Shown here: positions 2,854-33,918 of the stretch, piece after piece
Position numbering within the stretch: position 1 is the first letter of the stretch
How the letters are laid out: the number at the start of each line of letters is the position of its first letter
The notes under the pieces: generated by a model
What the model was told of the DNA's origin: nothing
What the model saw: only the letters and a program-made list of their open reading frames with translations
Databases searched by the model: none
Virus record (IMG/VR): IMGVR_UViG_3300025084_002696
Coordinates: 1 to 33,918 of that record
DNA from: a virus
Lineage: Duplodnaviria > Caudoviricetes
Reading direction: 5' to 3' (one strand)
DNA length: 33,918 bases
Program-made: the position numbers and the translations under genes

Positions 2854-2859
2854 TCTAAC

Positions 2860-9254: not shown

Positions 9255-9264
9255 TTAATTTCTC

Positions 9265-10613: not shown

Positions 10614-10645
10614 TTATGTCCTTAATTTATATAAATCTATACAAC

Positions 10646-10677: not shown

Positions 10678-10773
10678 AATGAACGGGTCTCGTTTCTTTA
10701 ATGCTTCAAGTTTTTTCTTTAATTTTCTTTTATTCTTCCAGTCTTGGAATTTTTGTTTTATTTTTTTAAACAT
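10669..10773 (-). CDS. 34-aa basic micro-protein MFKKIKQKFQDWKNKRKLKKKLEALKKRDPFIYK (absent from ORF track)
   Basis: Manual translation; AGGAG Shine-Dalgarno upstream; start overlaps the end of the 10766 ORF. Confidence 0.75.
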   Translation of the reverse strand: MFKKIKQKFQDWKNKRKLKKKLEALKKRDPFIYK

Positions 10774-11506
10774 CATAGTTCTCCTTAATGTATTTGTGTA
10801 ATTCGTTCCCCCACTCTATGTGGGATTTATCTGTTGGGTGTATCGTATTGTAGTAATTACCATTATCACCCCAATTTGTATTAAATTTTTTATCTATAAA
10901 ATTACGGAAGTGTGGCTTTAAATCATTATTGTATATTTTATCAAAGTTTATAAATTTATACAATGGTTTATTTTTCAAGTCATTCTCTATATATTGGTCA
11001 AATGCACTAAATATCAAATAATCAATACCTTTCATAGATAAATAGTTCTGTAAATTGATTAACTGCAATAAATTATGTTGAATTAATTCATCAGTTGCGG
11101 TCTTTGTTTCATCTACTCTACAAGGTTTGTACTTTATCTCCTTATGTTTTTCTATCATCATATCATACCTAACCAAACTTGTTAATCCAATAACAACAAA
11201 TATATCCTTTTTACCCAATGATTCTAAATATTCAATAGAATTTATCGTAGTTCTTACTATTCTTTGATTACTTGCCCCTAACCTACCACAATTCCAAGTT
11301 TCCACCCCAAGTTTTTCACCTAATACTTTTGGCCACACATCACTATCATAAAATTTATATGTGATTCTATCATTACAAGGTATGGTGGGTTCACCGAAAT
11401 TAGGTATTATATTATACCAGTCTAAGTTTGGTTTTGCTTCCCAATTCAAGTCTTGTGCTGGTGAGTCACCTTGTGTCCAACTATCTCCATTACAAAGTAG
11501 TATCAT
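10766..11506 (-). CDS. SGNH/GDSL hydrolase-like protein (paralogue 1)
   Basis: NGDSWTQG block I, GASN block II, C-terminal IHP. Confidence 0.75.
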   Translation of the reverse strand: MILLCNGDSWTQGDSPAQDLNWEAKPNLDWYNIIPNFGEPTIPCNDRITYKFYDSDVWPKVLGEKLGVETWNCGRLGASNQRIVRTTINSIEYLESLGKKDIFVVIGLTSLVRYDMMIEKHKEIKYKPCRVDETKTATDELIQHNLLQLINLQNYLSMKGIDYLIFSAFDQYIENDLKNKPLYKFINFDKIYNNDLKPHFRNFIDKKFNTNWGDNGNYYNTIHPTDKSHIEWGNELHKYIKENYDV

Positions 11507-12315
11507 TCAAATCTTCCTCGATAATACTCGTGATTAAATCTTTGTTCTTCATTAAATCCATTTAGAGTTAAATACTGACCTTCTTTTGTATAATTACTAA
11601 ATGTTTTTAACTCTTGTAATTCTTTCGGTGTGACTGAAACTTTACCATCTCGTGTTTCTTCTTTATCCAATATAGTAAAGTGTCTTTCCAACATATCAAT
11701 ACCTTGAAAGATTGCCTGTTTACTTGATAATAGATTATCTGAATGGTCACTAAATCCAACTTTGTCGTGTAGTGTTTTCAAATGTTCTATTGATTGTAAA
11801 TTCAATTTCTCAAATGGTGTCGGATATAAACAAACACAATGTAATATTGTGAAGTCAACTCCTTGTAAATTCTCAATACACTTTTTGATATCGTGTAAAT
11901 GTAAACTTGATGTAGAAAATACTAAGTGTTTAAAATTAAACTTATCTAATTTTAGTCCGTAATCAAATTCTCTCATAGAATATCCACTCAACTTTAAGTA
12001 ATCATACCCTAAACTATTATAATAATCATAATGATTAGGACTAAATATTGTTGTCATTGGTGTAACATTGTTAGCTTTTGCTGTGTGTATAAATTCCAAT
12101 TCATCATCTATACTTAATTCTAATGATGATAATCTTTTATATTCATCTGAATACTTTCTAAAAGATTCATACTCATCTCGTTTAGTAAGTGAATTAGCTT
12201 TAATGGATTGAATCTTTACTATGTCTGCTCCACTCTCGGCAGACTTGACCACCATATCTTTTAATGTATTAATATCACCATTGTGATTCTGACATAATTC
12301 AGCTATTAGTTTCAT
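11503..12315 (-). CDS. neuB: N-acetylneuraminate/nonulosonate synthase (NeuB family), lacking C-terminal AFL/SAF domain
   Basis: IAELCQNHNG, GADIVKIQ, LHCVCLYPTP, GFSDHS, ERHFT. Confidence 0.9.
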   Translation of the reverse strand: MKLIAELCQNHNGDINTLKDMVVKSAESGADIVKIQSIKANSLTKRDEYESFRKYSDEYKRLSSLELSIDDELEFIHTAKANNVTPMTTIFSPNHYDYYNSLGYDYLKLSGYSMREFDYGLKLDKFNFKHLVFSTSSLHLHDIKKCIENLQGVDFTILHCVCLYPTPFEKLNLQSIEHLKTLHDKVGFSDHSDNLLSSKQAIFQGIDMLERHFTILDKEETRDGKVSVTPKELQELKTFSNYTKEGQYLTLNGFNEEQRFNHEYYRGRFE

Positions 12316-12899
12316 AATTTTATATCTCCAATGTCTGTTTTATAGTTACAAGAAAAAAAACTTGGTGGACGTTTAGGATTCTTCCTGTAAAAATCTCTTG
12401 TCCCTGCTCTACCATCTATAAAATATGAAACTTCATAACCTAAATGATTAACAATATCCAGTAAATTAAATGTTGTTTGGGGGTTATTTGAGTGATACTC
12501 GGACCTAAGATTTGGTCCATCGATAATAACAAAATCAACACCTTGAATATCTTCCATTGTGTGAACATATCTAACACCATTAACATTGTTACATTTATCC
12601 TCTACAATGTCAATTAACTTTATATTGTTGTGTTCATTCCAACCATTTTCTATGGATTGATTATACCAATATTCATCACTTTCGTAACCAATAACTTTAC
12701 CACCATAATCTAAGTAATTGACAAGTTCTGTAATCATAAGTGTGCTTTGTCCACCACCATATTCCACAATAAACTTTGGTTGATGTTCTACAATGTAATT
12801 AAGTGCACTAAGGTATTTTCCTGTATCAACATACATAGTTTTTATCCACTTGTATTCTGTTGTTTCTATTGTTTCTAAAAAATTATTTAATGTTTTCAT
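12312..12899 (-). CDS. Class I SAM-dependent methyltransferase-like protein
   Basis: IVEYGGGQST motif I, GYESDEYW, DFVIIDGP. Confidence 0.75.
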   Translation of the reverse strand: MKTLNNFLETIETTEYKWIKTMYVDTGKYLSALNYIVEHQPKFIVEYGGGQSTLMITELVNYLDYGGKVIGYESDEYWYNQSIENGWNEHNNIKLIDIVEDKCNNVNGVRYVHTMEDIQGVDFVIIDGPNLRSEYHSNNPQTTFNLLDIVNHLGYEVSYFIDGRAGTRDFYRKNPKRPPSFFSCNYKTDIGDIKL

Positions 12900-13713
12900 A
12901 TTTCTCCAATACTCGTTTGTATGTTTTTTCTTGTGCTTCTATTGATGTTCCTGCTATGTGTGGTGTGACAATTACATTTTCTACCCCGTCAAATGTAGAT
13001 TGTTTTCCATTGTATTCTGATTGTAAAACATCAGTAGCGTATCCTTTTATTCTACCGACTGATAGTAGATGTTTTATATCTTGTTCGTTTACCACTTCAC
13101 CTCTCGCTGTGTTTATCAAATAAATATTTCTTTTAAAATGACTTAAAAATTCATTGTCAATTAAATTTTTTGTTGTTGGATTTAAATCTATATGAATAGA
13201 AACTATATCACTCTCTATGTAAAGTAAGTTTATATCATCATATTCGTCCACACAAATAACATCTTTAAATAATGGTTTACATAATTGTTCTACCATTTTA
13301 CCAAGTCTTCCATGCCCAATGATACCTAATGTTTTATCGTGTAGTTCGTGTTTTCCTCTAACTATTGATAACATTAGATATAGAGTATGTTCTGCTGTTG
13401 ACCAAACATCATTTAAAATCTTATCGTTCTTTACCGATACAATTGGAACTGATTTAACATCAATGTGATTAAGTCCTGTTGATGGTGACAATATAGACTT
13501 TATGTTTGAGTCTTTAATTAAATCTTCATCAATAACAAATGTTTGATGATTAGGTGCACAAAACAATATATCAAAGTTTTTTATTTGATTCTTCACATCT
13601 TCATATGTTGGTTCTATTAATTCCAACACTTCATAGTTTTGTAAAGTATAACTATAAAATTCTTTTAAGTGTTTTACTGGTGTTATAAATAAAATTCTTT
13701 GTGTATTGTCCAT
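12883..13713 (-). CDS. D-isomer-specific 2-hydroxyacid dehydrogenase (SerA-like)
   Basis: STGLNHID, TAEH, GIIGHGRLG, INTARG, ATDV, TPHIAG. Confidence 0.9.
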   Translation of the reverse strand: MDNTQRILFITPVKHLKEFYSYTLQNYEVLELIEPTYEDVKNQIKNFDILFCAPNHQTFVIDEDLIKDSNIKSILSPSTGLNHIDVKSVPIVSVKNDKILNDVWSTAEHTLYLMLSIVRGKHELHDKTLGIIGHGRLGKMVEQLCKPLFKDVICVDEYDDINLLYIESDIVSIHIDLNPTTKNLIDNEFLSHFKRNIYLINTARGEVVNEQDIKHLLSVGRIKGYATDVLQSEYNGKQSTFDGVENVIVTPHIAGTSIEAQEKTYKRVLEKYENIK

Positions 13714-14894
13714 TTGTTATCTCCTGTATTTCTACAATTCACTACTGATATCTTTCCGTCTTTTGTTTCTGCTAACTTTATATCTTTTCTGGTAAAACAC
13801 AAAAACTCAAATATTTCCCTATCAATTTTTTCAATCACATCTTTATCAATCCAAATTGCAAATCCTTTGTTGTCATTTAATTCTGATACATTCTCTGGTT
13901 TTTTATCCACCACTACAACATCAAAGTTGAATTTGTCAACATTGTGAAACTCAAAATTATATCTATTATCTCCCCAGTCATTATTTTCTTTTAAATAACT
14001 CTTTGCGTTATCTATTAATTTATTTCTGATATCCATAAAATACTTTTTTAGATTAATTTTGGAATCAGTATATATAGTAAGTTTTTTTTCAAATAAAGTA
14101 TCTGCGAGTTCTTTTCCAGAATCATTCAATAAGTCAATATATTTTTGAGTATGTAATATGTTTTTTCCAAGTCTACCAAATTGGTCTCTTGTATCTAAAT
14201 CTCTAAAGTTCCATAACTTTAAAACACTACAATCAGTTGACTTGTGAAATTTAGAACCTTTGAATAATCTATCTGCCGAACCATCAGTTTTTGATATATG
14301 AACAAAGTCATATGATAGATTATTAGATTTAGCTCCAAGTGGTTTCCAATGGGAAAATAACTCATCAACTGAAGTTATTTCTGTCATCTTTTGTTTGAAC
14401 ATACCTTCATAGTAATTATCATTATGAATATAAACAAAACACTTATCAAGATTTTTTCTCAGATAAGATGAAGCATAAAATCTTGTGTTTCCTGGGTGTG
14501 TGACCAAATTAAAATTATCAAATAATGTTTCTGGTTTAGTAAAGTCAATACTTATATTTTTAGACTTATCCTTTGCTTTAAAACTATGATGTGTTGGGTT
14601 GTAGAAGTTATCCGATATCAATTCTTGAACTATATATCTTCTATTTCTAAAGTGATACGAGAAATCTTGATGTTCTTTGAATGCTTTCTCATTATCCAAT
14701 TCGTGTAATGTTCTGTTAAAAAACCCATTTTTTGCGAACAAATATTCCAACCTAACATTTAAATTACTACTTCTTGGTTTTTTTCCATTTTCGTAATTAT
14801 AAAATTGCCAAGGCAAACTATCACAAAAAAACAATCTGTGGTTCTTGAAAAAATAATCTATGTAATGTTTGTTTTCTTTAAAGTCTGTTAACAT
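13683..14894 (-). CDS. Hypothetical protein, possible ParB/sulfiredoxin-like N-terminal domain
   Basis: 403-aa ORF in operon; ELISDNFYNP...HPGNTRFYA loosely matches the ParB GxxR motif. Confidence 0.6.
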   Translation of the reverse strand: MLTDFKENKHYIDYFFKNHRLFFCDSLPWQFYNYENGKKPRSSNLNVRLEYLFAKNGFFNRTLHELDNEKAFKEHQDFSYHFRNRRYIVQELISDNFYNPTHHSFKAKDKSKNISIDFTKPETLFDNFNLVTHPGNTRFYASSYLRKNLDKCFVYIHNDNYYEGMFKQKMTEITSVDELFSHWKPLGAKSNNLSYDFVHISKTDGSADRLFKGSKFHKSTDCSVLKLWNFRDLDTRDQFGRLGKNILHTQKYIDLLNDSGKELADTLFEKKLTIYTDSKINLKKYFMDIRNKLIDNAKSYLKENNDWGDNRYNFEFHNVDKFNFDVVVVDKKPENVSELNDNKGFAIWIDKDVIEKIDREIFEFLCFTRKDIKLAETKDGKISVVNCRNTGDNKWTIHKEFYL

Positions 14895-15544
14895 ATTTTC
14901 CTTATTTTAAAACTATTAAAATCATATTCTACTTCTACATCATACTCTTTTATAAACTTCTTAACATCATCTAAAACTTCTTGATACGCTATATCATCTC
15001 CGGCTATAACACCACCGATTTTTAACTTAGGCCAATAGTTAACCAAGTCTTTATACACTACATCTTTTCCGTGGTCCCCGTCAATCCATACAAACTTTAA
15101 TGAATTGTCTTTGTAGATTCCGTGAGAATATTGTTCTTCACAAGTTATTAAGTTTATGTAGTCCATAACACCTAAAGCTACGAGTGGATGTCTAACGATG
15201 TTTATAATGTTCAATCCCCACTCGTCTTTTACACCATTGTAGTAATCTAAAAATTGTTTTGGGTGTCCTGTAATTTTATAATTCTGTAATGCTTCTTCTA
15301 TTACCCAAAAAATATCAATGGCATCAAACTTTATATTTTTTTTACTATCACGAATTAACTCACCCATACGAGCAGTTGATTGTCCAAGTAAAACTCCAAT
15401 CTCTACAAAGTGGTCTCCGTCTTGTGCTTCATTGACCATTTCCTCATAAATAAATTCTGCGTCATTTACCCAACCCGGAACATCTTTGTATGAGTTAAAA
15501 TCAAATATACTATATTTCTCTTTGAAATATTTAGGTTTAACCAT
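14888..15544 (-). CDS. Class I SAM-dependent methyltransferase (Methyltransf_24-like, likely sugar O-methyltransferase)
   Basis: VEIGVLLGQS, FVWIDGDH, PKLKIGGVIAGDD. Confidence 0.85.
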   Translation of the reverse strand: MVKPKYFKEKYSIFDFNSYKDVPGWVNDAEFIYEEMVNEAQDGDHFVEIGVLLGQSTARMGELIRDSKKNIKFDAIDIFWVIEEALQNYKITGHPKQFLDYYNGVKDEWGLNIINIVRHPLVALGVMDYINLITCEEQYSHGIYKDNSLKFVWIDGDHGKDVVYKDLVNYWPKLKIGGVIAGDDIAYQEVLDDVKKFIKEYDVEVEYDFNSFKIRKIC

Positions 15545-16586
15545 CTATCAACTCCTTGAAAAATTCTTGTTCTGAAAGTCCTGGTTGAATTGTCATACGA
15601 CACCAATTATTTCGTTTTCCGTATGGGTGGACTTTGCCGTATTTGACTAATACTTTGTGTTTATCTAAAATCTTTTTTGTTTTTAGATTGTCATCATCTG
15701 TATTGAAATGTATCCAGTTTGTCTGACTATCTAATATACTAAAATTTTTCATCAATGTCAAGACTTTTTTTCGTTCTTCGATAACTTCTTGTGTGTAGAT
15801 ATCAACCAAATGAAAGTTATCCAATAGAAACTCACAATACTTCAAAGATACGCCTGTAATTTCATACATTTGTCTAAATTTTGATAAGGGTTCTATCATA
15901 TCTTTGTGTCCAAATGTCATACCGACTCTACAACCTGCTGCGCCAAACCCTTTTGAAAAAGTTCTCGTAACTAACAAGTTTGGATATTCATCAATATACT
16001 TGATAAAACTATCCCATTGTAAATCTTCTGTATCTAAGAACTCTATATATGCTTCATCAATCAATACCGGAATACCTGTATCTAATAATGGTTTGATTTC
16101 ATCTATGGTTTTGTAATCACCGATTGGACTATTTGGATTTGCCAATATAATCAACTGAGTTTCATCATCTACAAAACTTAACATATTTTCTATTGATAGT
16201 TTTCTTGTATCTAAATCATAGTGTATCCCTTTGTAAGGACAATTGTATAAAGATGCGTAAACTCCATACATAGGAAAGGACGGTTCTGATGTAACGATAT
16301 TGCCACAAGTTGTGAAGGTTTCAAATATAGACTTGATACCGACATCAGAACCATCACTTAAAAATAAATTTTCTGACTTAACATTATAAAATTCACATAT
16401 TTTTTCTTTGAAGTTTTTTGTATTGGGATAATATGCAAAGTCTTCTTGTTTTAAACTTCTTAGAAACTTTGTATAGTAAGAGTGTGGAATTGGTTGTGAG
16501 CGCTCTGATTGGTTTAGAATAAAATCATACTCAGATTTATCCGTATAATCAAACTTTCTTTCTACTTTATGTAAGTGATTTTTCAT
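15537..16586 (-). CDS. PLP-dependent class I/II enzyme, HisC/CobD-like aminotransferase or decarboxylase
   Basis: YYP, DGSD, LANPNSPIG, IDEAYIEF, TRTFSKGFGAAGCRVG, CRMTI. Confidence 0.9.
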   Translation of the reverse strand: MKNHLHKVERKFDYTDKSEYDFILNQSERSQPIPHSYYTKFLRSLKQEDFAYYPNTKNFKEKICEFYNVKSENLFLSDGSDVGIKSIFETFTTCGNIVTSEPSFPMYGVYASLYNCPYKGIHYDLDTRKLSIENMLSFVDDETQLIILANPNSPIGDYKTIDEIKPLLDTGIPVLIDEAYIEFLDTEDLQWDSFIKYIDEYPNLLVTRTFSKGFGAAGCRVGMTFGHKDMIEPLSKFRQMYEITGVSLKYCEFLLDNFHLVDIYTQEVIEERKKVLTLMKNFSILDSQTNWIHFNTDDDNLKTKKILDKHKVLVKYGKVHPYGKRNNWCRMTIQPGLSEQEFFKELIDG

Positions 16587-17061
16587 CTTTTAATTCCGAT
16601 ACTATTTTATAAGGTGTTTTTTCCCATACCGATATCTCCCCAATCTCAATATGTTTTGGTTGATTAATACACCAGACTATAATCTCTGTTATTTCTTTGT
16701 AAGTAAGACTTGGTAACTCCGATTCCAGTAAACCACAATTGACATCAATGATTCTGCAAGTCTTGTCACTATTTAATCTCAAATTATTTGATAGATGATT
16801 TAGTGCTGCTTTTGAAGTTGAATACATAAATCCCTTTGATATATTTGGATATTTACTTCTACTACCAATATTAATAATTGTCTTGTCAGTATACTTCCAC
16901 TCATCAAACGCTTTCATAAGTAATTTAGTCTGATTGAAACTATCGTGTCTATTGTTTATAAACACATCAGTATTTTTATCAAAACCCTCAACTACATCAT
17001 CAAACCTACTTGATAACTCTTTTCCCAATCCCCTATCTTTATTTGTTATTGATATTTTCAT
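16567..17061 (-). CDS. Minimal short-chain dehydrogenase/reductase
   Basis: DVFINN, IINIGS, YSTSKAAL (YxxxK); degenerate Gly motif TNKDRGLG; start likely MKISIT at 17061. Confidence 0.8.
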   Translation of the reverse strand: MKISITNKDRGLGKELSSRFDDVVEGFDKNTDVFINNRHDSFNQTKLLMKAFDEWKYTDKTIINIGSRSKYPNISKGFMYSTSKAALNHLSNNLRLNSDKTCRIIDVNCGLLESELPSLTYKEITEIIVWCINQPKHIEIGEISVWEKTPYKIVSELKDEKSLT

Positions 17062-17935
17062 AATACTCATTTATAATGTTAAAACTTTCCTTTCCAAATA
17101 ATTGTCCATTTACTGAACAATTTTTACAAGGACTAAAATCTCTATCTCCCTTTGATAACTTTTTTCTAATATCATACATTTTATCACTAAACCAAACATC
17201 AAATAGTTTTTCCTTTACTAGATTACCAACTACAATTTCTTTGCCCCAATCGTTGGAACAAAATAAAACATCTCCGTTCCAATCTACGAACAATTTGTAA
17301 AATGGATAATGACAAGGTTTTCCTTTTAGTGATTCCACATCACTATCATCAAATCCTAACCAGTCTATATTACCACCTCTATTGTTAACGAATAATCCGT
17401 AGTCGTCTTGTGAATAATGTGCTCGATATCTATACTTAGAATTATCAATGTCTGACATAATCTCTTCAAACTTTTCCTTTTGTTCTATACCATCATATAA
17501 GTTTATATACAATAAGTCTAATCCACTTTCAAAGAATTTTCCTATACTTTCTTTTTTTAAAAAATCTCCATTAGTATTACACTCAAACAAATTGTCTGTT
17601 AGATATTTTCTCATAATTGAAATAATGTCTAAAAACTTTTTATTTAAGAAGTTTTCACTGTAACCACTATAAGATATTTTACCCTTGTAGTTGTGGTTTG
17701 TTAAATTTTTTGCAATACTTTCAGCATCCTCAACACTCATATTCAAGTTTCTATTCGGATAAACTTCTGAGTCGTGTCTTGGACAAAAAATACAAGTTCT
17801 GTTACAAAGTTCTGTTGTGTTTAACTCAATAGTCAAGATTGAATTTAGTGGATTGTCGGTATCAACCTTGTTAAAAAACTCCCGTTCTTGCTCTTTTCTA
17901 TGTTTTAAAAAAGTATCTTTATTGTAATCACTCAT
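17039..17935 (-). CDS. Radical SAM protein with SPASM/twitch domain
   Basis: CNRTCIFC; C-terminal PCHYPF...GDVLFCSND...VGN...PCKNC. Confidence 0.92.
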   Translation of the reverse strand: MSDYNKDTFLKHRKEQEREFFNKVDTDNPLNSILTIELNTTELCNRTCIFCPRHDSEVYPNRNLNMSVEDAESIAKNLTNHNYKGKISYSGYSENFLNKKFLDIISIMRKYLTDNLFECNTNGDFLKKESIGKFFESGLDLLYINLYDGIEQKEKFEEIMSDIDNSKYRYRAHYSQDDYGLFVNNRGGNIDWLGFDDSDVESLKGKPCHYPFYKLFVDWNGDVLFCSNDWGKEIVVGNLVKEKLFDVWFSDKMYDIRKKLSKGDRDFSPCKNCSVNGQLFGKESFNIINEYYENINNK

Positions 17936-18752
17936 AGGTAAAATACTCGTTCATTAATTTGTCTAGTGGTTGATTATAAATCCACTCAACTCCCTTTTCT
18001 TGTATCAAATATCTCATTATTTCTGGTGTTGGTCTACCTTGTTTTATCATTTTACCATCTCTGAGTAAAAGTGGAAATCCTCGTATCTTAATAGAAGTTA
18101 GTCCTTGTTTATATATGTGTTCTGCTGGTGTAAAGTGACAAGACCTTGATGATATATCACCATCTATAAATGTCATATCATACATTTTAGAAAATTTATC
18201 CATAGCTATTGGTGTTCCGAAGTAAAAATTATCCTGTTGTAATATTAGTCTATATGGATTTTCTCTAATAAATTCTTTTTGGATAGATAATGATTCTGAA
18301 GTAAAAAGTGTATCATCATTATAAAAATATTGTTTATTTCTAACGAGATTTACACAAGTATCAAGTATATTTGAATTATGAATAAGTGCATCATTCCTTG
18401 TTTGTATTACCCCATCAAATTTATGTTTTGAATTTCTTCTAAGTTTTTGAACCTCTTTTATAGCATAAGACATATAGTTAATATTTGGTTTAGAACTTCT
18501 AAGATTAAAGTCTACATCACTTGGGTCCAGTTTTATGTAATCTTTAAGAAAGTCATACTTACTATAATCAATGTCAACAATTTCTATCTTACCAAATCTT
18601 TCTTCTTCATACCAAACATTATCACCTTTCCAAGTTGCTAAAAAAAATACAAACTCTACATCATCATACAAATTATTCCAATGCTCAAATAAAGGATATG
18701 TTTCTTCCCAATATCTAACTAAACCTGATATACAAACTGCTATCTTTTTCAT
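17928..18752 (-). CDS. Hypothetical 'KIAVCxSG' family protein, possible glycosyltransferase-like (paralogue of 24512-25300)
   Basis: MKKIAVCISGLVRYWE, FLATW, FDGVIQTRND, DNFYFG. Confidence 0.6.
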   Translation of the reverse strand: MKKIAVCISGLVRYWEETYPLFEHWNNLYDDVEFVFFLATWKGDNVWYEEERFGKIEIVDIDYSKYDFLKDYIKLDPSDVDFNLRSSKPNINYMSYAIKEVQKLRRNSKHKFDGVIQTRNDALIHNSNILDTCVNLVRNKQYFYNDDTLFTSESLSIQKEFIRENPYRLILQQDNFYFGTPIAMDKFSKMYDMTFIDGDISSRSCHFTPAEHIYKQGLTSIKIRGFPLLLRDGKMIKQGRPTPEIMRYLIQEKGVEWIYNQPLDKLMNEYFTYE

Positions 18753-20402: not shown

Positions 20403-20697
20403 TGAAAAAGTCTCCTGCGTTTATTCCTCTGTCATCTATGAAGTAATCTCCATTGTGTCCTTTAAAACACAACTTGTGATATTTTACTCCCCACTCTTTT
20501 AATTGTTGTTCTGTAATTGGACGATAATGTTCCTCACCTCTACCACTCTTTAATCCACGAGCAGTATAGAAAACTATTGTGTGTCCCTCGTCGTATAGTT
20601 TGTTTATTTTTGCGATTCTATCAAGATACGGTTCTCGGCCGATTACCTTACCTTCTTCTTTACATATAGTTCCATCTATATCTATGACATACTTCAT
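20386..20697 (-). CDS. Capless HAD phosphatase (BcbF/capsule biosynthesis phosphatase-like)
   Basis: DIDGTI motif I, YTAR motif II, FIDDR motif IV. Confidence 0.85.
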   Translation of the reverse strand: MKYVIDIDGTICKEEGKVIGREPYLDRIAKINKLYDEGHTIVFYTARGLKSGRGEEHYRPITEQQLKEWGVKYHKLCFKGHNGDYFIDDRGINAGDFFNETKV

Positions 20698-26073: not shown

Positions 26074-26446
26074 CTAACGCCTCCCATATGTTCTTTACCC
26101 GTATTCTATGATTTCTCATATCACCAAATAAAGTTTCATCATTCCTATGGTGATTTCCCAATAACCATAAAACAAAAGAGCCACAATATAGTATATTATC
26201 ATCAATACTACATTCCTTATGTAAAAATGAATAATTAACATTATTAACATAAATCAAGTTATCATCTAATGGTAATGAAAATATCTTATCAGTATCTAAA
26301 TTATCAAAATTTCTTTTTAGTATTAAATTACCTGAAAAGACTTCATCATTATCCAACTCTTGTTTTCTAATTTTAAATGTTTCATCAGCTAATGACATAT
26401 TTGGTTTAATAATATTATATTTTCCGTTGTAATAATTTTCGTTCAT
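26063..26446 (-). CDS. Hypothetical protein
   Basis: 127-aa ORF overlapping both neighbours in the operon; no motif recognised. Confidence 0.65.
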   Translation of the reverse strand: MNENYYNGKYNIIKPNMSLADETFKIRKQELDNDEVFSGNLILKRNFDNLDTDKIFSLPLDDNLIYVNNVNYSFLHKECSIDDNILYCGSFVLWLLGNHHRNDETLFGDMRNHRIRVKNIWEALDEL

Positions 26447-27711
26447 TAAAATATCCTATCATATAAGTTTGTTTTTATATCGTAATTTTCTATAACATTA
26501 ATATTATGTTGTAAAGTTTCTTTCATATCACCATACATATGTAATAAATCTTTTTCATCATAATCAGATAATGTTAAAACCAAGTCCATAATCATTTGTA
26601 ATCGTTTCCAATCATCTGGTTCGTTATCATAACTTTCGTCCCACCATTTGTCAAAAGTTTTAAATCCATATTGTTTCATAACCTCTAATGTTTTGTATGG
26701 TGCGAATTGTATGATTGGGTGCCCACAATACATAGGATTAAAAGTAGAACTATGTAAGTGATAACCACTTGTATCAAATGGAAAAGCTCCCATAACAATA
26801 CTGATAAAAGTATCACGATAGTGAATTGGGTCAAATGGTAAGTCTGCGTCAAAGAATCCTTTACCAATTCCTGCTGGTCCGTGATTTGTTTTATCCGTAT
26901 TATCAATATCAAATGGTAGTTTTGATTTTAAATCATTAATATTTTCTTGTTGTGTGTATTTGTAAAACATATTAGAATAGTCAGGCCATTTATGTAATTC
27001 TGGAAAACTAACTAAACACTTATCAAATAGTTTTTCAAAATTCAAAAACAACATAAATATATCTCGTTCATCACGATTAGTTCTATTGATTTTTAAAAAG
27101 TGTTTTGTTTTAAATGTATTTACTGATTTATACTTATATTCCATATCTACTGAAACTTTTTTTGGTAAATCTCCCTGATGTTTTAATCTTTGGACATCAA
27201 ACACATTCCACATAACTGATACAACATTTATCTTATCTGCTCTATGATATTCTTGATGTGTCTTTTCTGCTATTAAATTGTTTGTAATGAAGTAAATATT
27301 TTTTGTTGGAAGTTTTAATTTGTCAATACTTTCGTAAAATGGATTTAAAAATTCATCTCCCTCGATAGATTTACCTTCAAGTGTATTGTCAAAGATTAGT
27401 TTACAATTTCCTTTTCTAACTTCTTCTAATATGTTGTTCGGTATAACATCTAAGTTTTTTGCCCACAATGGTTGATTGTGATGAACGTGAACAAAATAAC
27501 TAAATGGTCTATCAAATGTAAAGTTTTCTGTTTGAACTTCTGTCAACCCCAATACATTTGGTAAACTGGAATGACTAAATAAAGGTCTACAAATCGTTTC
27601 ATTACGATTATCTTGTTCAGTTATTTCTGGTATATGTTTGTATATATCAATTATTTCTTGACTCGGCTCAGTCATACTAACCTGATTAAAATTATCAATT
27701 AATGTTATCAT
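26446..27711 (-). CDS. Hypothetical protein, possible GT-B (GT10-like) glycosyltransferase
   Basis: C-terminal GHPII...YGFKTFDKWWDESYD...LQHN, typical of a GT-like family in phage glycan clusters. Confidence 0.55.
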   Translation of the reverse strand: MITLIDNFNQVSMTEPSQEIIDIYKHIPEITEQDNRNETICRPLFSHSSLPNVLGLTEVQTENFTFDRPFSYFVHVHHNQPLWAKNLDVIPNNILEEVRKGNCKLIFDNTLEGKSIEGDEFLNPFYESIDKLKLPTKNIYFITNNLIAEKTHQEYHRADKINVVSVMWNVFDVQRLKHQGDLPKKVSVDMEYKYKSVNTFKTKHFLKINRTNRDERDIFMLFLNFEKLFDKCLVSFPELHKWPDYSNMFYKYTQQENINDLKSKLPFDIDNTDKTNHGPAGIGKGFFDADLPFDPIHYRDTFISIVMGAFPFDTSGYHLHSSTFNPMYCGHPIIQFAPYKTLEVMKQYGFKTFDKWWDESYDNEPDDWKRLQMIMDLVLTLSDYDEKDLLHMYGDMKETLQHNINVIENYDIKTNLYDRIF

Positions 27712-28315
27712 ATATAACCTCCGATATATTTACACAACCTTCTTTTGTTGGGTGTGATGTATCATCTATATATAAATCTCTCCAATCATCACGAAAGTTT
27801 ATTATTTTACTTTTATCCAATTTATTGTAGATTGGTAAATCTATTTCACTCAATTGGGTAAGAAAATTTATAATTCTATATTCAAATTTGTTTTGTTTTA
27901 AAAAACTTTGTAATGATATTAAATTTGTAATTAAATTTTTGCGTTGATTTTCAGATAAATTTTCATCATTTTCTACCAAATATTTGTAATATTCAGCGAA
28001 CACATTTTGAACTTCGTGGTCTTGTTCACTATTCAAACAACTTGGTGATACATCTAAAGTTTCATTTCCAAATTGAATCATATATCTGGTTTCCCAAGTT
28101 AATCCGATAATAACAATGGTGTTTTCTGGATTTAATTCACTCAAAGTATTAATTGAATTAAAAGTTATAGATTGAAAAGATTGTCCATTTTTAGATTCAT
28201 TTATCAAATTACAATTTAGTTTATCGGATAATAACTTTGGCCAAGTTTCTTCTCTTGGAAGAGTATGACCATAAGTAAAACTACAACCATTTGTGTATAA
28301 ATTTTTACTTGACAT
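27695..28315 (-). CDS. SGNH hydrolase-like protein (paralogue 4)
   Basis: NGCSFTYG, TWP, GQS, IGLTWETR, DTSHPT; start likely 28315. Confidence 0.75.
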   Translation of the reverse strand: MSSKNLYTNGCSFTYGHTLPREETWPKLLSDKLNCNLINESKNGQSFQSITFNSINTLSELNPENTIVIIGLTWETRYMIQFGNETLDVSPSCLNSEQDHEVQNVFAEYYKYLVENDENLSENQRKNLITNLISLQSFLKQNKFEYRIINFLTQLSEIDLPIYNKLDKSKIINFRDDWRDLYIDDTSHPTKEGCVNISEVIYDNIN

Positions 28316-28925
28316 TGTCAATAAACTTTCGTATCTTACGATAGGTGACATCTGTTGAATCTTCTATTTCTAACACCGGTGAACCTGTTTCTCTTGCTCC
28401 TCTTCTACCCAATTCGGAATCTTCCAATATAATAGTTTCTTTTGGACTTACTCCTGCTTTAATCATACACCTTAAATAAATTTCTGTATTGGGTTTTGGA
28501 TTCACTACATCTTGATTGGTAAATACAAATTCTAAATGGTCAATGAATCCTCTTCTTGTTAATTGAACGATTGCACTATGACGAACTGAATTAGTTGCAC
28601 AACATAATGTAAATCCGTCTCGTTCTAATCTTTCCAATACTGATATTAATCGTTTGTCTTTTTCCAAATCATTAATCATTTGTATTGTTAAGTTCTGTTT
28701 ATCTTCCCACACTTTATCGTGTAGTTCATAAGGTAACCCTTTTTGTTGTGATAACATAGTTAGTTTAGTTCTCGTAGGATTTCCGTCATATTTGGATAAA
28801 TGTTCGTCACGATTAATAACATATTTTTTATCTATGTTTTTTAATGCTTGGTTTAATGCGTTATAATGAATTTCTTTGGCATCAACCAATACTCCGTCTA
28901 AATCAAATATTATTAACTTAACCAT
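28305..28925 (-). CDS. HAD-superfamily phosphatase (beta-PGM/CbbY-like)
   Basis: FDLDGVLVD, ATNS, KPNTEIY, LEDS. Confidence 0.9.
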   Translation of the reverse strand: MVKLIIFDLDGVLVDAKEIHYNALNQALKNIDKKYVINRDEHLSKYDGNPTRTKLTMLSQQKGLPYELHDKVWEDKQNLTIQMINDLEKDKRLISVLERLERDGFTLCCATNSVRHSAIVQLTRRGFIDHLEFVFTNQDVVNPKPNTEIYLRCMIKAGVSPKETIILEDSELGRRGARETGSPVLEIEDSTDVTYRKIRKFIDNVK

Positions 28926-29712
28926 TTAAATCCCAATCCTTTACTACCGCTTGAACAAATTCATCATAATAGTCAACAAAATTTTTGTGTACATAAGGTA
29001 TTTTTTGGTTAGTGTCTCTTAAAACTTTGTCAAGCTTTTCCATATCATTGTAATATTTTTTCAAATACATTGGTGAATACTCATAATCTTCATAAAAAAT
29101 GGTATGTAAATTGTATTTGATTGATAATAAATGTAACATATTAATTTCATCTTGATACGCTTTCATTAAATAGTTAAGGTAGTAATATTCATTTTGTCCA
29201 TCTTGACTTTTAAACATTTGAGTCTCCCAACCAAGATGTAAATTTTTATAATTTATTTTACTTTTCAATAATTTTTTATGAAAGTTTATCATATCTTCAG
29301 TTTGTTCTAATGGTGTTTTCCACTGTTTACTAAACAATTTTTGGTTGATTAACTCTTCCCATATCGGTAAGGATAGTAAAGCTTTTTCTTTATCTTTTCT
29401 TTCCAATACTACAAGATTGTATTCTTTACTTAATTTATCAAAATATCCACTATTATAAAAATGACTTATTACTAATGAATTGTTTAATAAAACAACTGCA
29501 TAGTTTTTATGTTTTAACATATTAGAAGTCTGTTCTGTAAAAGAAACTCCTGACAAAGTATCAAAATCTAATTCTCCAAGATTATCATAACTTATATCGT
29601 TAATTCTTAAGACTTCTTTAAGACTTAATTGAAGTTGAGTTCCTCCCGAACGATAATGTGAAAGTATTATTGTTCCCTTTTTGTTTTTATCATACATTTG
29701 AAAGTTATCCAT
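28918..29712 (-). CDS. Sulfotransferase-like protein (Stf0-like P-loop)
   Basis: ILSHYRSGGT resembles 5'-PSB loop, LERKDKEKALLS resembles 3'-PB, IFYED. Confidence 0.6.
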   Translation of the reverse strand: MDNFQMYDKNKKGTIILSHYRSGGTQLQLSLKEVLRINDISYDNLGELDFDTLSGVSFTEQTSNMLKHKNYAVVLLNNSLVISHFYNSGYFDKLSKEYNLVVLERKDKEKALLSLPIWEELINQKLFSKQWKTPLEQTEDMINFHKKLLKSKINYKNLHLGWETQMFKSQDGQNEYYYLNYLMKAYQDEINMLHLLSIKYNLHTIFYEDYEYSPMYLKKYYNDMEKLDKVLRDTNQKIPYVHKNFVDYYDEFVQAVVKDWDLNG

Positions 29713-30526
29713 AAATGTCCCTCTTTATTCTACTTAATATTTGTTTTGTCCACAACTCTTGTCCATCTTCTGATGGGTGATATTTGTCGAAAAGTGCTTG
29801 TTTAATTCTTCTGTCTTCTTGTTTTAGCAAATAATTTCTAAAAGAAATTGGAAATACTACATCTTGCCTAACTTTCTGATACTCTGTGGTCAATGCGTAT
29901 TGTTCTATCTTATCATATTGATATGAATTTTCTATAATGTCATCAATATTCAATGAATTGACTATACCACTTGAACTATCAGTATTTGCTTCGTAAAAGG
30001 CATCAAAGAACAAATGTTTTATTTTGTGTTCTTTTAAAAAGTAATGAAGAAATAAATTTTGTTGAATATATCTGTCTAAAAATTCCTCCTCATTCCAAAA
30101 TTTCTCTAAGTATATGTTGTAAAACTTTTTTAAATCTTCATCATCATTAAAACTTTGTTGTAATTGTGCAGGATACATAGTTTCCCAATGTCTTGTTCTT
30201 CCGTTTTTGTAAAAAAAATCTTTTCTCTCTGGTGAAGTCCATCCTACAATTACATACAAGTCTTTTGCTCTACGTTCTAATAACATTCCCATAACTTTTC
30301 GTATAATTCTACGAACTATTCCGTCATTAGAACTTCCAGCGTGTGCAATATTGTGTATTTCAACATCTTTTAATTTGTTGCCAAGTTTGTCCGGCCATAG
30401 CTTTGGTAATCTATATTCGTCATTATCTGGGTGGTTAACAAACATACCATCAATTCCCTCTAAATCTGGATTAATTTCGTGTCCACCTGTCCAACTATCT
30501 CCGTCACATATTATTATTTTACTCAT
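29705..30526 (-). CDS. SGNH/GDSL hydrolase-like protein (paralogue 5)
   Basis: DGDSWTGG, GSSNDGIVR, VGWTSPER, DKYHPS. Confidence 0.78.
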   Translation of the reverse strand: MSKIIICDGDSWTGGHEINPDLEGIDGMFVNHPDNDEYRLPKLWPDKLGNKLKDVEIHNIAHAGSSNDGIVRRIIRKVMGMLLERRAKDLYVIVGWTSPERKDFFYKNGRTRHWETMYPAQLQQSFNDDEDLKKFYNIYLEKFWNEEEFLDRYIQQNLFLHYFLKEHKIKHLFFDAFYEANTDSSSGIVNSLNIDDIIENSYQYDKIEQYALTTEYQKVRQDVVFPISFRNYLLKQEDRRIKQALFDKYHPSEDGQELWTKQILSRIKRDIYG

Positions 30527-30954
30527 TTATACTCCTCTATGTAGTCTGAACAAACTCCTGCTATATAGTTTGATAATTTCTTGTTTCTTGGTGGCATAAC
30601 ACATATAGTTTTATTTGTCATTTTTTGTCTCCAAGTTGACCAGAAATAACCTTTTGTTGTAAGTGCCACAATATCTCGTGTGTGTGAAAAACAATGTATA
30701 TCTTTATCTTTACTCAAAAGATAAAAACCTACAATATCTTTTGCGTGACACCATATTCCGTCTTGTCTTAAAAACTCATAGTCAATGTCATATTGTGGGA
30801 AGTCGTGTCCTAATGACAATCTACCATCTTCCCAACCCCAAACATCAACCTCAACATCATAACCTAAGTCTAATGCTTGTTGTATATATTCTGGATTATT
30901 TTCCATTTCAGGATTTCGTCCGTTTATGTTTCCTCTATGTGATATTAGTATCAT
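30523..30954 (-). CDS. Short glycerophosphodiester phosphodiesterase/PLC-like protein
   Basis: ISHRGN, EN, DVEVDV, LGHD, WCHAK, GVCSD. Confidence 0.75.
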   Translation of the reverse strand: MILISHRGNINGRNPEMENNPEYIQQALDLGYDVEVDVWGWEDGRLSLGHDFPQYDIDYEFLRQDGIWCHAKDIVGFYLLSKDKDIHCFSHTRDIVALTTKGYFWSTWRQKMTNKTICVMPPRNKKLSNYIAGVCSDYIEEYK

Positions 30955-31670
30955 TCTTTCCCAACATCTAAATTTTTCATTAAAAAGTTACAATGTCCTG
31001 ATAAGTCCCAAACCTTATACTTATTCTGTTCATTGAAATTAAAGTAAAATACCATATCATCCAATGAACTTTTTAATGTTGTTTTTGAGTCATTATTATC
31101 CTTTACAAATTTTAGTATATCATCAACATTATACTTGCTGTTATTTAGTAAACCAGAATAATGTAATGTATAATCTGCCCAAAAGTAATGTGATTCATCT
31201 ACCATTTTAAAATAATTACCACAACCAAAGTTATATGGTGTTCCTGAATAACTCCACAACTCACCCTCATACTCTCTTGTCTGAATATGAACTGCCTGTT
31301 CTGGATTTATTAGTGTTAATTCAAATAATTTATTCTTTAAATCGTGACGAACTACAAATGTCCATTCTTGTTCCAATTCGTATGGTTCTGTAAAAAATGT
31401 TACAAAGTCGTGTTTAGAATCGTCACCAACCTTTGTCCAAAACTCCCATTGAATATGACCAGATTGTTGATTATAACTTAATCCATAATGCATACCTGGT
31501 CTCATCATAATTGCCGAAGGTGTTTCTGTATGTTGAACCTTTCCCTCTTTATTAAATTTGATAAAAAATGTGAAATCTTCTTGCATTACTCTTGAAGGTG
31601 GTAAAGTTGTTAAGTCATACCTTTGAGTTGGTAAAACATAATATGGTTGCTTTTCATCAATTTTTAACAT
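30951..31670 (-). CDS. LamG/concanavalin A-like lectin-fold protein
   Basis: Aromatic-rich beta pattern DFTFFIKF...PYNFGCGN...VFYFNF...WDLSGHCN. Confidence 0.55.
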   Translation of the reverse strand: MLKIDEKQPYYVLPTQRYDLTTLPPSRVMQEDFTFFIKFNKEGKVQHTETPSAIMMRPGMHYGLSYNQQSGHIQWEFWTKVGDDSKHDFVTFFTEPYELEQEWTFVVRHDLKNKLFELTLINPEQAVHIQTREYEGELWSYSGTPYNFGCGNYFKMVDESHYFWADYTLHYSGLLNNSKYNVDDILKFVKDNNDSKTTLKSSLDDMVFYFNFNEQNKYKVWDLSGHCNFLMKNLDVGKE

Positions 31671-33076
31671 AAGTCTTTACACTCCATATAAAATTGCTCC
31701 AATTCTGGAAAAGTTTTACAAAAATCTGTTCCACGTCTTTTATCGTGTTCAGAAAACATTCTATAAAAGTTTTGTCGTTGTGGTGTAATCTTATCGTAAT
31801 CGGTAGAAATCATCCAGTCATATATTCTCTTTAATTTTTGAACTTCAATATCCGAATACCCAATTAACCTTGTTTCAAAATTTGGTGTAGCAAAGTATTC
31901 AATAAGTTGTGTTTGTTTGTATATTAAATCAGACATTTCTTTTGGTAAAACTTGTACGGTTTGATGACTCGGATATCTTAAATAACTTGAATCTAAAAAT
32001 ACTGCTGAGTTCCAATATCTATCTGATGAACCATATTGTGTTTTTAAATCATAAACACCCTTAACCAATTTATCATAGTTTGGAACTGATAATGCGTTGT
32101 ATGTTGACATAATGGTTAAATTCACTCTTGGACATTTTTCTAATATCTTGTTCATATTATCCCAATGACGATTAAAGTCTAATCCATTACGAATATACTC
32201 TGCTTGTTCACCCCAAGTATCAACTGATGTAAATATAATAAATTCTTTCACTCTTTCTTCATCTTCTATTCGTTGTATCTTTTCAATAAAGTTATCAACC
32301 AAATTATCTGGTATTCCAAGATTTGAATTTATTGCTAATTGTAAATTTTTGTTTGGATTGGGTTCATCAATAATGTAATCTAATACTTTCCAAGTATCTT
32401 TTGATAGTAATGGTTCTCCACCCGTGATTCTAAATGTATGTAAATCACGATATAAATCTGGCCACCATTTCCAAAAGGCATCAACATAAGGATTTGGTTC
32501 CGTATGTAGTATTGGAACTTTGTTTTCTGCTTCCATACCTTCCATACCATTAAACTTATCTGATGTTGGATATGCTCCGTGTTTTTTAATTTCCTGCATC
32601 CAAGTAGATGAATAAGGTGGTCCACAATAACTACATTTGAAATTACAAGCATTTGAGAAAGCAACCTCTACATATCTTGGATTTATATTCTCTCTCCAGT
32701 CTGCATTTACTATTTCATCAAAGTGTGGTTTAGACCAACTTTCATTTGATTTAAAAACTCTATCACTAAATCTATCTGAATTGTCTTCTACACCCCAACA
32801 ATAATCACACTCAACTGGTCGTTTACCCGTAAGCATTTCTCGTCTACGAAGTTTTTTATATTGAGTATTGTGTAGAGCACTTGGATTTCTTGTGATTTCC
32901 TTTTCTGAAATCTTGTGTGTTCTGGGGTGGTGACAACTATGATTGTGCCCTGTTTGTAGTTGTAGTGTAACTTGTGTCCACTTTGCTAAACACATACCTG
33001 GTCCAATTGAGTCTAACTTTTCTTTCGTTTCTTGAAACAATGGATTTTCTTTTACTTGGTCATTATATCCTGACAT
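31664..33076 (-). CDS. Radical SAM protein with N-terminal twitch-like Cys cluster
   Basis: CLAKW...SCHH...ECDYCW; CNFKCSYC; ITGGEPLL; FTSVD; YIRNG. Confidence 0.92.
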   Translation of the reverse strand: MSGYNDQVKENPLFQETKEKLDSIGPGMCLAKWTQVTLQLQTGHNHSCHHPRTHKISEKEITRNPSALHNTQYKKLRRREMLTGKRPVECDYCWGVEDNSDRFSDRVFKSNESWSKPHFDEIVNADWRENINPRYVEVAFSNACNFKCSYCGPPYSSTWMQEIKKHGAYPTSDKFNGMEGMEAENKVPILHTEPNPYVDAFWKWWPDLYRDLHTFRITGGEPLLSKDTWKVLDYIIDEPNPNKNLQLAINSNLGIPDNLVDNFIEKIQRIEDEERVKEFIIFTSVDTWGEQAEYIRNGLDFNRHWDNMNKILEKCPRVNLTIMSTYNALSVPNYDKLVKGVYDLKTQYGSSDRYWNSAVFLDSSYLRYPSHQTVQVLPKEMSDLIYKQTQLIEYFATPNFETRLIGYSDIEVQKLKRIYDWMISTDYDKITPQRQNFYRMFSEHDKRRGTDFCKTFPELEQFYMECKDLC

Positions 33077-33918
33077 TAAAACCTCACATTAATTAACTTA
33101 TGTCTACTATAAATAGTATCAATACTATGTATCTTGTATTTCATTTGTCTTAGTCCTGAATTATCAATATCAACTTCACCCTTTTGCATTTTCTTTCTGT
33201 AAAGGATTTCGTTTTTACTGGTTTGTTCTACATCTCCTTGGAATTGATTGTTAACAATTCCCTCGTCGTCGTGATACATACACTCCATAGTTCCGTATCT
33301 TCTATGTGGTGCTGGACTATCTTTGATAACTTCTTTATTTTGTAAAAATCTAATATTACGATTTTCAATTATTCCGTGATTTCCAAATTCACTTAAATCT
33401 TTAACGATATCCCCTTTACATCTTTTACAACCTTGGTCACAACATATTGATTTAGTCATATCGTAATGTAAAACTAAGTCATCATAAGAGTTCCACATTT
33501 TTACTTCTGCTATTTCACCTTTGAAGAACCTTTGTCCTTCCCAAGCAAGTGGGTCATTACACCCTAACCAAAATGGATTATTACCATATCTTTTTAATTT
33601 TTCTTCATACGATATAGTTGATTGTTGTATACCGAACTTTTCCCCTAAGTCTTGGTCATTGATTTGAAAACTGATTTTCTTATTGTCTTTGTCGTGTATC
33701 AAACTAACTTTTGTCCAATTGTTTTGATATCTTCGTCTCCAACGATATATGTGTTGGTTTTTCCAATCCCACATTGATGATGCGAAAGCATTACTATTGT
33801 TGTAATCTATTCCGAAGTCATATCCTATTTTAGATAATATTGGATATTTAAGATATCTGTTATTTCCTTTACCGATTAAATGTTCTGGGTCTTGTTCGGG
33901 TATTTCGGGTTTACAAAT
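33076..33918 (-). CDS. Partial CDS (runs off right edge): LamG-like region plus GT7 (beta-1,4-galactosyltransferase-like) C-terminus
   Basis: Frame is open from 33918 (ICKPEIPEQ...FASSMWDW), so 33774 is an internal Met. FKGEIAEVKMW and KDLSEFGNHG are LamG-like; HRRYGTMECMYH...SGLRQMKY resembles the GT7 C-terminus. Confidence 0.6.
   Translation of the reverse strand: MCKPEIPEQDPEHLIGKGNNRYLKYPILSKIGYDFGIDYNNSNAFASSMWDWKNQHIYRWRRRYQNNWTKVSLIHDKDNKKISFQINDQDLGEKFGIQQSTISYEEKLKRYGNNPFWLGCNDPLAWEGQRFFKGEIAEVKMWNSYDDLVLHYDMTKSICCDQGCKRCKGDIVKDLSEFGNHGIIENRNIRFLQNKEVIKDSPAPHRRYGTMECMYHDDEGIVNNQFQGDVEQTSKNEILYRKKMQKGEVDIDNSGLRQMKYKIHSIDTIYSRHKLINVRF

Follow-up and report, generated by a model that had tools for sequence, protein, structure and literature searches.

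A swappable glycan-gene island with a conserved core beside the tail-fibre genes of large marine myoviruses, and its candidate acceptor

Introduction

What does a phage build with some thirty consecutive genes, many of glycan-enzyme character, and which molecule receives the product? The question is raised by a 33,918-nt fragment of a Caudoviricetes virus record (IMG/VR record IMGVR_UViG_3300025084_002696), hereafter the window, that is, the whole stretch analyzed, in which 30 open reading frames (ORFs) of at least 100 aa follow one another on the minus strand from position 10766 to the right window edge. The block proved to be a real, lineage-wide and swappable glycan island with unusual chemistry, carried by a large marine myovirus. 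As its acceptor we infer virion proteins, as originally predicted: a late, soluble, cytoplasmic pathway glycosylating them is the most likely reading, with a probability of roughly 0.55.

For two decades, without a test, the glycan-gene islands of aquatic myophages have been taken for tools that alter the host surface. Should they decorate the virion instead, abundant phages of the sea would display glycans that differ between strains, with consequences for adsorption and grazing, for particle stability and for the carbohydrate pool of the ocean. The islands would also be a source of new sugar chemistry, with a divergent ulosonate synthase, a GT7 enzyme with an inserted LamG domain and glycan-editing radical SAM enzymes. 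The acceptor question becomes testable with the present locus, for which there are defined borders, a relative without the island, exchanged cargo among the nearest kin and a cultured proxy (Immutovirus).

Assembly, borders and lineage

The window has a G+C content of about 30% throughout, and all its long ORFs lie on the minus strand. All 29 junctions between the 30 island ORFs overlap, which bears out the co-oriented, coupled block of about 30 genes first described; the overlaps measure 1-50 nt as called, a few TTG or GTG starts being probably over-extended. An independent IMG/VR contig (L083) matches window positions 1506-12724 at 99.96% over 11,219 nt and crosses the 10.7-kb junction, which is therefore not an assembly artefact; the chimeric joint that the original prediction had named as refuting is thus ruled out. 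A host chromosome fragment is excluded by synteny with phage relatives and by the structural genes. The order of NeuB-like, SGNH and kinase genes is kept in all seven NeuB-bearing relatives (L084-L090), and marine-metagenome contigs cover 30/30 bins of window 21001-33918 in three of three runs and 30/30 bins of 8001-21000 in two of two DNA runs. One contig of run X14 joins 16550 to 18747 and omits the short SDR gene (16567..17070) and two genes next to it, with a short side of 20 nt that makes this join weak.

On the head side, the island ends at a 152-nt gap at 10.7 kb. This gap, put forward as the only one, is indeed present but is not empty, as it contains a conserved 35-aa ORF and an ATA(T/C)TTAT motif. 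The island had also been placed directly upstream of the head genes, which does not hold: ten other ORFs (8.3 kb) intervene before the terminase gene, and the opposite border, visible in relatives, is a tail-fibre block. The last window ORF (33076..33918) is cut by the contig end and represents the C-terminal 280 aa of a GT7 (galactosyltransferase-family) protein with a LamG domain; it matches at 91% a 481-aa protein of relative G005 that itself matches Glyco_transf_7N/7C and Laminin_G_3. Judged from G005, about 7 kb of the island probably lie beyond the window edge.

The closest cultured kin by terminase are Flavobacterium phage immuto (Immutovirus) and Microcystis phage Mel-JY01 (53-54%), with cyanophages at 30-31%, and an estimated 2,500 or so IMG/VR stretches hold a relative. 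In the terminase tree the window falls in a starred, well-supported five-row clade with G002, G005, G006 and G007; as the tree took in one non-terminase row (G008_25015, on a long branch), only the starred five- and nine-row clades were used. No terminase was found in four of five more distant contigs carrying the twitch-domain radical SAM gene, all of which are fragments. The distant relative G001, a complete 238-kb genome, likely has a Bacteroidota host, and none of its 137 scanned proteins is an integrase. Upstream regions at G001 74310 and 76725 show TTTG-N20-TA..TTT motifs before non-structural genes; the pattern resembles the Bacteroidota housekeeping promoter, which fits such a host for G001.

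A conserved frame with exchangeable cargo

Completion of the island from relatives revealed one order, fibre block, core, cargo and head-proximal genes, in G001, G002, G003, G004, G005, G008 and G014. It begins with a giant fibre gene (the G002 protein carries an S74 chaperone domain), usually followed by a fibre-like gene, then by a transferase of 330-390 aa, usually another Ser/Thr-rich gene, and a methyltransferase gene. A GT2-like gene comes next, with two or three GT7-LamG genes and the twitch-domain radical SAM gene behind it, and then the cargo. The frame is kept in every relative that reaches the upstream border (G001-G005, G008 and L187-L189/G014), and island spans are 22-36 kb. The border transferase has a predicted GT4-type fold (pLDDT 93; Z 24.3, rmsd 3.5, 314 residues aligned), found by fold search, whereas a PDB sequence search with its alignment gave no match; in G001 the gene occurs once more, flanked by a fibre gene and the tail sheath gene. 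The twitch-domain radical SAM gene is present in six of eight relatives, and the contigs of the remaining two end before its place.

The cargo differs even among nearest kin. G005 and G006 carry most of the cargo genes of the window, including the NeuB cassette, G007 is mixed, and G002, a member of the same five-member terminase clade, has epimerases, TPP enzymes and a PhyH dioxygenase in place of that cassette. In G018 (terminase 73%) the fibre genes stand directly upstream of the lysozyme gene, the island being absent between the same flanks, and 8 of the 18 kinase loci with enough upstream DNA have no island genes there. Since cargo varies and both G018 and these loci do without the island, the block, conserved in its core, is dispensable and swappable.

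Two further arrangements were observed. G014 (80% terminase) has the same frame at 81449-99564; its cargo comprises about eight paralogs of the GT-B family and, in addition, several radical SAM-like proteins. G017 (20940-32000) has no island at the site and carries a carbamoyltransferase-like cluster within its tail gene block, tailoring enzymes being again tied to tail genes.

Gene content and predicted chemistry

Sugar-specific family or fold matches were obtained for 8 of the 30 ORFs, several of them below curated cut-offs: a NeuB-like protein, a CMP-transferase, an NDP-sugar nucleotidyltransferase, GT8-like, GT47-like, GT-B-fold and GT7-LamG proteins, and a BcbF-like phosphatase. Two more are DUF7796-like, 13 belong to generic enzyme families (five SGNH proteins, all with intact catalytic Ser and His blocks, one methyltransferase, three radical SAM enzymes, and one each of HisC-like, 2-hydroxyacid dehydrogenase, SDR and HAD type), and seven have no firm family (12312, 13683, 20694, 26063, 28918, 30523 and 30951). 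The description of nearly all genes as sugar enzymes was therefore overstated.

The NeuB-family protein (11503..12315, 270 aa; PF03102 E 5e-38) keeps the SDH/SxH and ERHFT motifs, lacks the C-terminal antifreeze-like domain, and its family match ends near residue 240. It reaches 140 bits against a NeuB cut-off of 400 and 117 against a PseI cut-off of 340. Family scans of the 30 ORFs found no NeuC epimerase and no PseB/C or LegB/C dehydratase/aminotransferase precursor enzyme; nonulosonate precursors could be supplied by the host. Because the enzyme is divergent and the known precursor enzymes are absent, its predicted product is best called an unknown ulosonic acid, so that the nonulosonate first proposed stands as to NeuB family and CMP-transferase and not as to the sugar's identity. 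The closest cellular relatives found share 34-38% identity and come from seven loci of SAR11, SAR116, Chitinophagales and others; among cultured phages there is no relative beyond two weak matches.

The nucleotidyltransferase at 19677..20402 is putatively BcbE-like, and the BcbF-like match is below cut-off. In Pasteurella multocida, BcbE and BcbG add fructose, and BcbF is predicted to take part (PMC13552107). A fructofuranose donor made by the nucleotidyltransferase and the HAD proteins is thereby only a lead.

Absence of membrane functions

Peak 19-residue hydropathy among the 30 island ORFs is 1.22; therefore, the island genes of the window encode no membrane segment. Family profile scans of the same ORFs detected no Wzx, Wzy, ABC or phosphoglycosyltransferase family, and both results agree with the original prediction, which had seen no exporter, initiating transferase or multi-pass membrane protein. 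The self-contained, soluble character holds when the island is completed from relatives. Neither Wzx (PF01943; control matched in 13 of 14) nor the initiating transferase (PF02397; control 9 of 14) was found in any of five relatives, including complete G001, and among 272 island-region proteins a single one has two hydrophobic segments and none has more. Both families are also lacking among the 137 non-island G001 proteins; that scan passed over small ORFs and the 147-222 kb block, and both are covered by the PF01943/PF02397 searches and the hydropathy count.

A candidate late promoter motif

In G001, ATA(T/C)TTAT precedes 15 of 24 gap-led structural-block genes versus 7 of 75 others (Fisher p 5e-7, post hoc), against a coding background of 11/3002, and it stands before three of six tested structural genes of cultured Immutovirus. 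The motif lies before the giant fibre gene in G001, G002, G003, G008, G014 and G018, and before the first island enzyme gene in G004, G008 and G014. Window copies at 10647-10654 and 2847-2854, both on the minus strand, occupy positions orthologous across the lineage and in cultured Immutovirus; the former, at the downstream border, is the candidate late promoter of the next head-side unit. The G001 island has no gap longer than 60 nt. By its placement the motif is a candidate late promoter and suggests late co-expression of the island with the fibres. Flippase genes together with early expression had been named as refuting a virion glycan; PF01943 was found in 0/5 relatives, and the motif before the island in relatives is late-type, not early-type. 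An early-type pattern in G001 (1/24 structural versus 16/75 other genes, p 0.06) is too loose for placing island promoters, and RNA runs X15 and X16 yielded short pieces only.

The 35-aa ORF of the border gap (10669..10776) encodes a conserved basic peptide ending in KRDPF, with 14 distinct versions in the window and related loci. It occurs upstream of the kinase gene in 10/10 island loci and 0/8 island-free ones, counts that are not independent of kinship. The peptide could be a scaffold, a membrane tether or a virion component.

Proposed pathway and its acceptor

In the proposed pathway, transcription would start at the late-type motif before the giant tail-fibre gene and again before the first island genes, and would read through the gap-free block. 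The core (GT4-fold transferase between two fibre-like genes, GT2, two or three GT7-LamG proteins, methyltransferase and twitch-domain radical SAM enzyme) would then prime a conserved inner glycan, attached to and extended on Ser/Thr-rich fibres in the cytoplasm before lysis, these fibres being the presumed acceptor. Of the cargo, the NeuB-like synthase and the CMP-transferase may yield a CMP-activated unknown ulosonic acid, and the nucleotidyltransferase with two HAD phosphatases a second NDP-sugar, for which fructofuranose is one candidate. Outer residues would be added by the GT8-like, GT47-like, GT-B and DUF7796-like proteins, and edited by SGNH, methyltransferase, PLP and radical SAM enzymes, on putative substrates in each case. 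Finally, recombination between the conserved borders would swap cargo, as the observed cargo differences suggest, and might thereby create particle-surface serotypes. A more ambitious version is less likely than not: a lineage-wide, phage-only virion glycocalyx, equivalent to what O-antigen islands are for bacteria, with fibres primed by the GT4/GT7-LamG core and strain serotypes set by swappable cargo, which here would make an ulosonic acid not described before and tailor it by radical SAM and acyl chemistry.

Several observations weigh against a virion acceptor. Ser/Thr-rich fibres are not specific to island phages, those of island-free G018 having 21-31% Ser+Thr. The predicted folds match transferases of DNA, proteins and small molecules alike and so do not tell the acceptor; T4 DNA beta-glucosyltransferase is the second match of the GT-B protein (Z 10.9). 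The GT7-LamG, GT-B and KRDPF-peptide queries had no match in 50,697 phage records, the GT4-like query matched one uncultured record only, and no cultured phage shows the frame. The island's own promoter is outside the window, and ATA(T/C)TTAT was chosen by eye from these same genomes. A second glycosyltransferase cluster lies in the replication region, after a PD-(D/E)XK nuclease gene, in G001 (19419-34290) and Immutovirus (NC_055915, 49172-59988), and the motif is found at none of four tested genes of the Immutovirus cluster. Soluble enzymes can also use host lipid-linked precursors with host flippases, and similar islands have been read as modifying the host O-chain (PMC7029224).

The tripeptides SGS and TGS, considered as an acceptor signal, are about 4-fold enriched in island phages. 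The signal was rejected as island-specific and is uninformative, because Immutovirus (3.7x) and Mel-JY01 (5.6x), both without the island, are equally enriched, and Immutovirus has other glycosyltransferases.

The best-surviving alternative, although unlikely, is host-envelope editing, in which the soluble enzymes and nucleotide sugars alter host lipopolysaccharide (LPS), capsule or protein glycans at the cytoplasmic face with the help of the host's own carriers and flippases, so that superinfection or grazing is blocked. Such editing could do without membrane proteins from the phage, and the closest cellular NeuB relatives, in SAR11, SAR116 and a Chitinophagales genome, belong to loci of surface-polysaccharide type. 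The BcbF-like phosphatase recalls capsule loci (PMC13552107), and published work interprets the islands of pelagimyophages and cyanophages as editing the host surface (PMC7029224, PMC12801897). However, five of the seven cellular loci encode a protein with 5-11 hydrophobic segments, and these membrane partners are absent from the phage islands; the island lies within the virion block in position and orientation and is preceded by a late-type motif, so that host protection would come too late; and a pathway that spans 22-36 kb and has a conserved core of its own suggests that a glycan is assembled de novo rather than edited once.

A free glycoconjugate or small molecule (glycolipid, released polysaccharide or modified metabolite), or several acceptors, without any virion coat, is improbable. 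It would accommodate the 13 generic and seven unassigned ORFs, the small-molecule transferases among the best GT4-fold matches and the several radical SAM-like proteins of the G014 cargo, whereas no exporter is encoded, and the GT4-fold gene is tightly coupled to fibre-like genes in all relatives that show it.

Least probable is DNA hypermodification, with modified bases glycosylated before packaging. In its favour, T4 alpha- and beta-glucosyltransferases are among the many enzymes that the GT-B folds resemble, several 2OG-Fe(II) oxygenases of G001 have no assigned role, and phage DNA glycans can be diverse and their glycosyltransferases can adjoin terminase genes (bioRxiv 10.1101/2023.12.21.572611). 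Against it, the island lies outside the replication module, ThyA-family hydroxymethylase (PF00303) was found in 0/5 relatives (control 10/14), G001 and Immutovirus have a separate Mom-family gene and DpdA pathway, respectively, and LamG domains, SGNH enzymes and a CMP-ulosonate suit surface glycans. The search for the TET/5mYOX dioxygenase PF12851 also gave 0/5, but its control matched nowhere, which makes that count uninformative.

Relation to known systems

Similar islands are already published for pelagi- and cyanomyophages. The host recognition clusters (HRCs) of these phages (Zaragoza-Solas et al. 2020, PMC7029224) are hypervariable islands that adjoin the tail-fibre genes and contain glycosyltransferase genes as well as radical SAM cassettes. 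That paper describes large, non-syntenic islands of the structural region with LPS-type genes, gaining and losing cassettes gradually, all of which the present locus resembles. HRCs, however, lie between VrlC and the neck gene gp14 of Cyano-T4 phages, whereas the present island lies between the fibre block and the genes preceding terminase and portal, in a lineage whose terminase stands far from cyanophages and whose neck-like genes come after the major capsid gene; the conserved GT4/GT2/GT7-LamG/twitch-domain radical SAM core is a feature of the present island. The locus is thus an HRC-type glycan island in character and falls outside the HRCs by position and lineage; the original prediction had known of no characterised phage pathway with this enzyme combination, and similar islands are in print.

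Cyanophage S-SCSM2R carries 22 LPS and cell-wall-synthesis genes, including KdsA/KdsB, an ulosonate synthase-activator pair (PMC12801897). Such islands in P-SSM2, S-SCSM2R, Bellamy and S-CAM9 share nucleotidyltransferase, HAD and phosphodiesterase-like genes with the present one at 36-48%. They lack the GT7-LamG core, and in two of these phages, Bellamy and S-CAM9, the cluster stands behind the nrd/tRNA region instead of beside tail-fibre genes. Mycobacteriophages such as Che8 bear capsid and tail-tube glycans (Freeman et al. 2023, as cited in PMC12619734 and PMC11256854), and soluble glycosyltransferases encoded by the phage are proposed to attach them to virion proteins within the cytoplasm. 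A few transferases serve there, whereas the present island has about 35-40 genes, donor synthesis and tailoring included; a virion glycan is shown for mycobacteriophages and predicted for the present phage. No mycobacteriophage matched the GT4-like, GT7-LamG or GT-B queries (50,697 records; the GT8-like, GT47-like and DUF7796 ORFs stood outside that search).

Immutovirus (NC_055915) shares the candidate late motif, has a T4-like portal gene adjoining terminase and carries a glycosyltransferase cluster of 13 genes, but the corresponding position holds no island, and none of the core genes has a match there. Moraphages, which are large aquatic phages whose hosts are predicted or known to be Bacteroidota, share four core glycosyltransferases (PMC12619734), and giant viruses likewise hold islands rich in glycosyltransferases (PMC13620141). 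The NeuB/NeuA, PseI/PseF and LegI/LegF pathways share with the locus a NeuB-family barrel with metal-site motifs and a CMP-transferase; they differ in that scores here are far below equivalog cut-offs and in the antifreeze-like domain and precursor enzymes missing here. From serotype-conversion cassettes of the Gtr/Wzy/Oac type the island region differs by the absence of a membrane flippase, polymerase or membrane transferase. DNA-glycosylating clusters sit by 5mYOX or ThyS genes (bioRxiv 10.1101/2023.12.21.572611), whereas all five relatives searched lack a neighbouring ThyA-family hydroxymethylase. In open-access full text, no experimental study of the glycans of such islands or of a phage ulosonate synthase was found.

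Individual genes of the window

Inward from the cut GT7-LamG gene, all genes on the minus strand, the core ends with the N-terminal twitch-domain radical SAM enzyme (31664..33076; NF033640, 361 bits against a cut-off of 170). A probable free LamG-like protein follows (30951..31670), without a match itself, its G001 homolog giving a weak Laminin_G_3 hit (E 0.08). The small phosphodiesterase-like protein at 30523..30954 falls in phrog_34507, has no Pfam match and shows an N-terminal motif that we take to be GDPD-like; its homologs adjoin HAD/NTP-transferase genes in cyanophages Bellamy and S-CAM9. After a protein with the SGNH/DUF6071 acyl-hydrolase/transferase fold (29705..30526; DUF6071 E 8e-19; Ser, Gly and His-Pro blocks kept) stands a P-loop-like protein with a conserved RSGGT motif and no firm family (28918..29712). 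A sulfotransferase was rejected for the latter, having no Pfam or PDB match, and the possible sulfation first suggested thus loses its support. A beta-PGM-like HAD phosphatase (28305..28925; HAD_2 E 4e-26) is fused to the NTP-transferase in G001 and G004.

Two SGNH paralogs (27695..28351 and 25297..26073), identified by paralog comparison and with catalytic blocks kept, flank a 421-aa GT-B-fold glycosyltransferase (26446..27711; AlphaFold pLDDT 90) and a protein without a family in scans (26063..26446). The GT-B protein has no sequence family, occurs in 1-4 copies in all eight relatives G001-G008, and in fold search had GT-B transferases in nearly all the top rows (best Z 11.2, rmsd 4.2, 267 aligned). 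Next come a DUF7796-like putative glycosyltransferase (24512..25300; ESM Atlas 0.98, with DUF7796 on 12% of the cluster; relatives DUF7796 E 7e-6), a GT47/exostosin-like glycosyltransferase (23676..24527; PF03016 E 6e-6, below cut-off), an SGNH/DUF6071 protein found by family scan, with catalytic blocks kept (22876..23679), and a GT8-like glycosyltransferase (22218..22925; PF01501 E 0.003; phrog_28018). The CMP-ulosonate synthetase-like cytidylyltransferase (21568..22221) matches CTP_transf_3 (PF02348, E 2e-10), its best NCBIfam rows being KdsB, far below cut-off.

The protein at 20694..21578 belongs to a family of 152 representatives found in one to three copies beside the NeuB cassette; a Pfam scan of 58 of them left the family domain without a match in every case, there is no PDB match, and one representative is fused to a sulfotransferase domain. 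A ParB/Srx-like reading of its motif, made by eye, was dropped on these same scans. The BcbF-like small HAD phosphatase (20386..20697; TIGR01689 E 2e-5, below cut-off) and the NDP-sugar nucleotidyltransferase (NTP_transferase E 8e-10; PDB 4evw E 2e-18; 48% to cyanophage island genes) precede two radical SAM/SPASM enzymes identified by family scan, at 18749..19684 and 17039..17935. Between these two lies a DUF7796-like paralog (17928..18752; 24% to the 24512 ORF; phrog_13607); the second is accessory, absent from all eight relatives G001-G008 and present in L098.

Family scans further identified an accessory short SDR oxidoreductase (16567..17070) and a HisC-like PLP enzyme, either transaminase or decarboxylase (15537..16586); HisC-like enzymes make amino-alcohol phosphates in Campylobacter capsules. 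A SAM methyltransferase (14888..15544; Methyltransf_24, E 4e-11) is followed by a protein that accompanies NeuB (13683..14894), conserved at 34-57% in NeuB-bearing relatives and without a match in family scans or ESM Atlas, then by a D-2-hydroxyacid dehydrogenase (12883..13713; E 7e-34) and a probable O-methyltransferase (12312..12899) with weak RMNT_CmcI matches only (E 0.08 and 0.05). Beyond the NeuB-like gene, an SGNH/DUF6071 protein found by family scan, with catalytic blocks kept (10766..11506), is the last enzyme gene of the island.

Head-proximal neighbours

Among the head-proximal genes, window 9265-9747 (minus strand) encodes a GH108 lysozyme with a peptidoglycan-binding domain, and 3720-7604 (minus strand) a 1294-aa protein with a central cytidylyltransferase-like domain, kept before terminase across the lineage; its relatives measure 915-1642 aa and vary in N-terminal inserts. 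Many head-region ORFs open with the leader M-x-K-L-x-x-(I/L)-(I/L)-x-E, two in the window (9747-10613 and 7568-7942) and up to seven per relative (G002 37868-60158; G008 58698-64939), against none of the 30 island ORFs. The leader presumably resembles the T4 capsid-targeting sequence, and its distribution suggests that the ORFs bearing it form a set of packaged internal proteins, including a zeta-like kinase.

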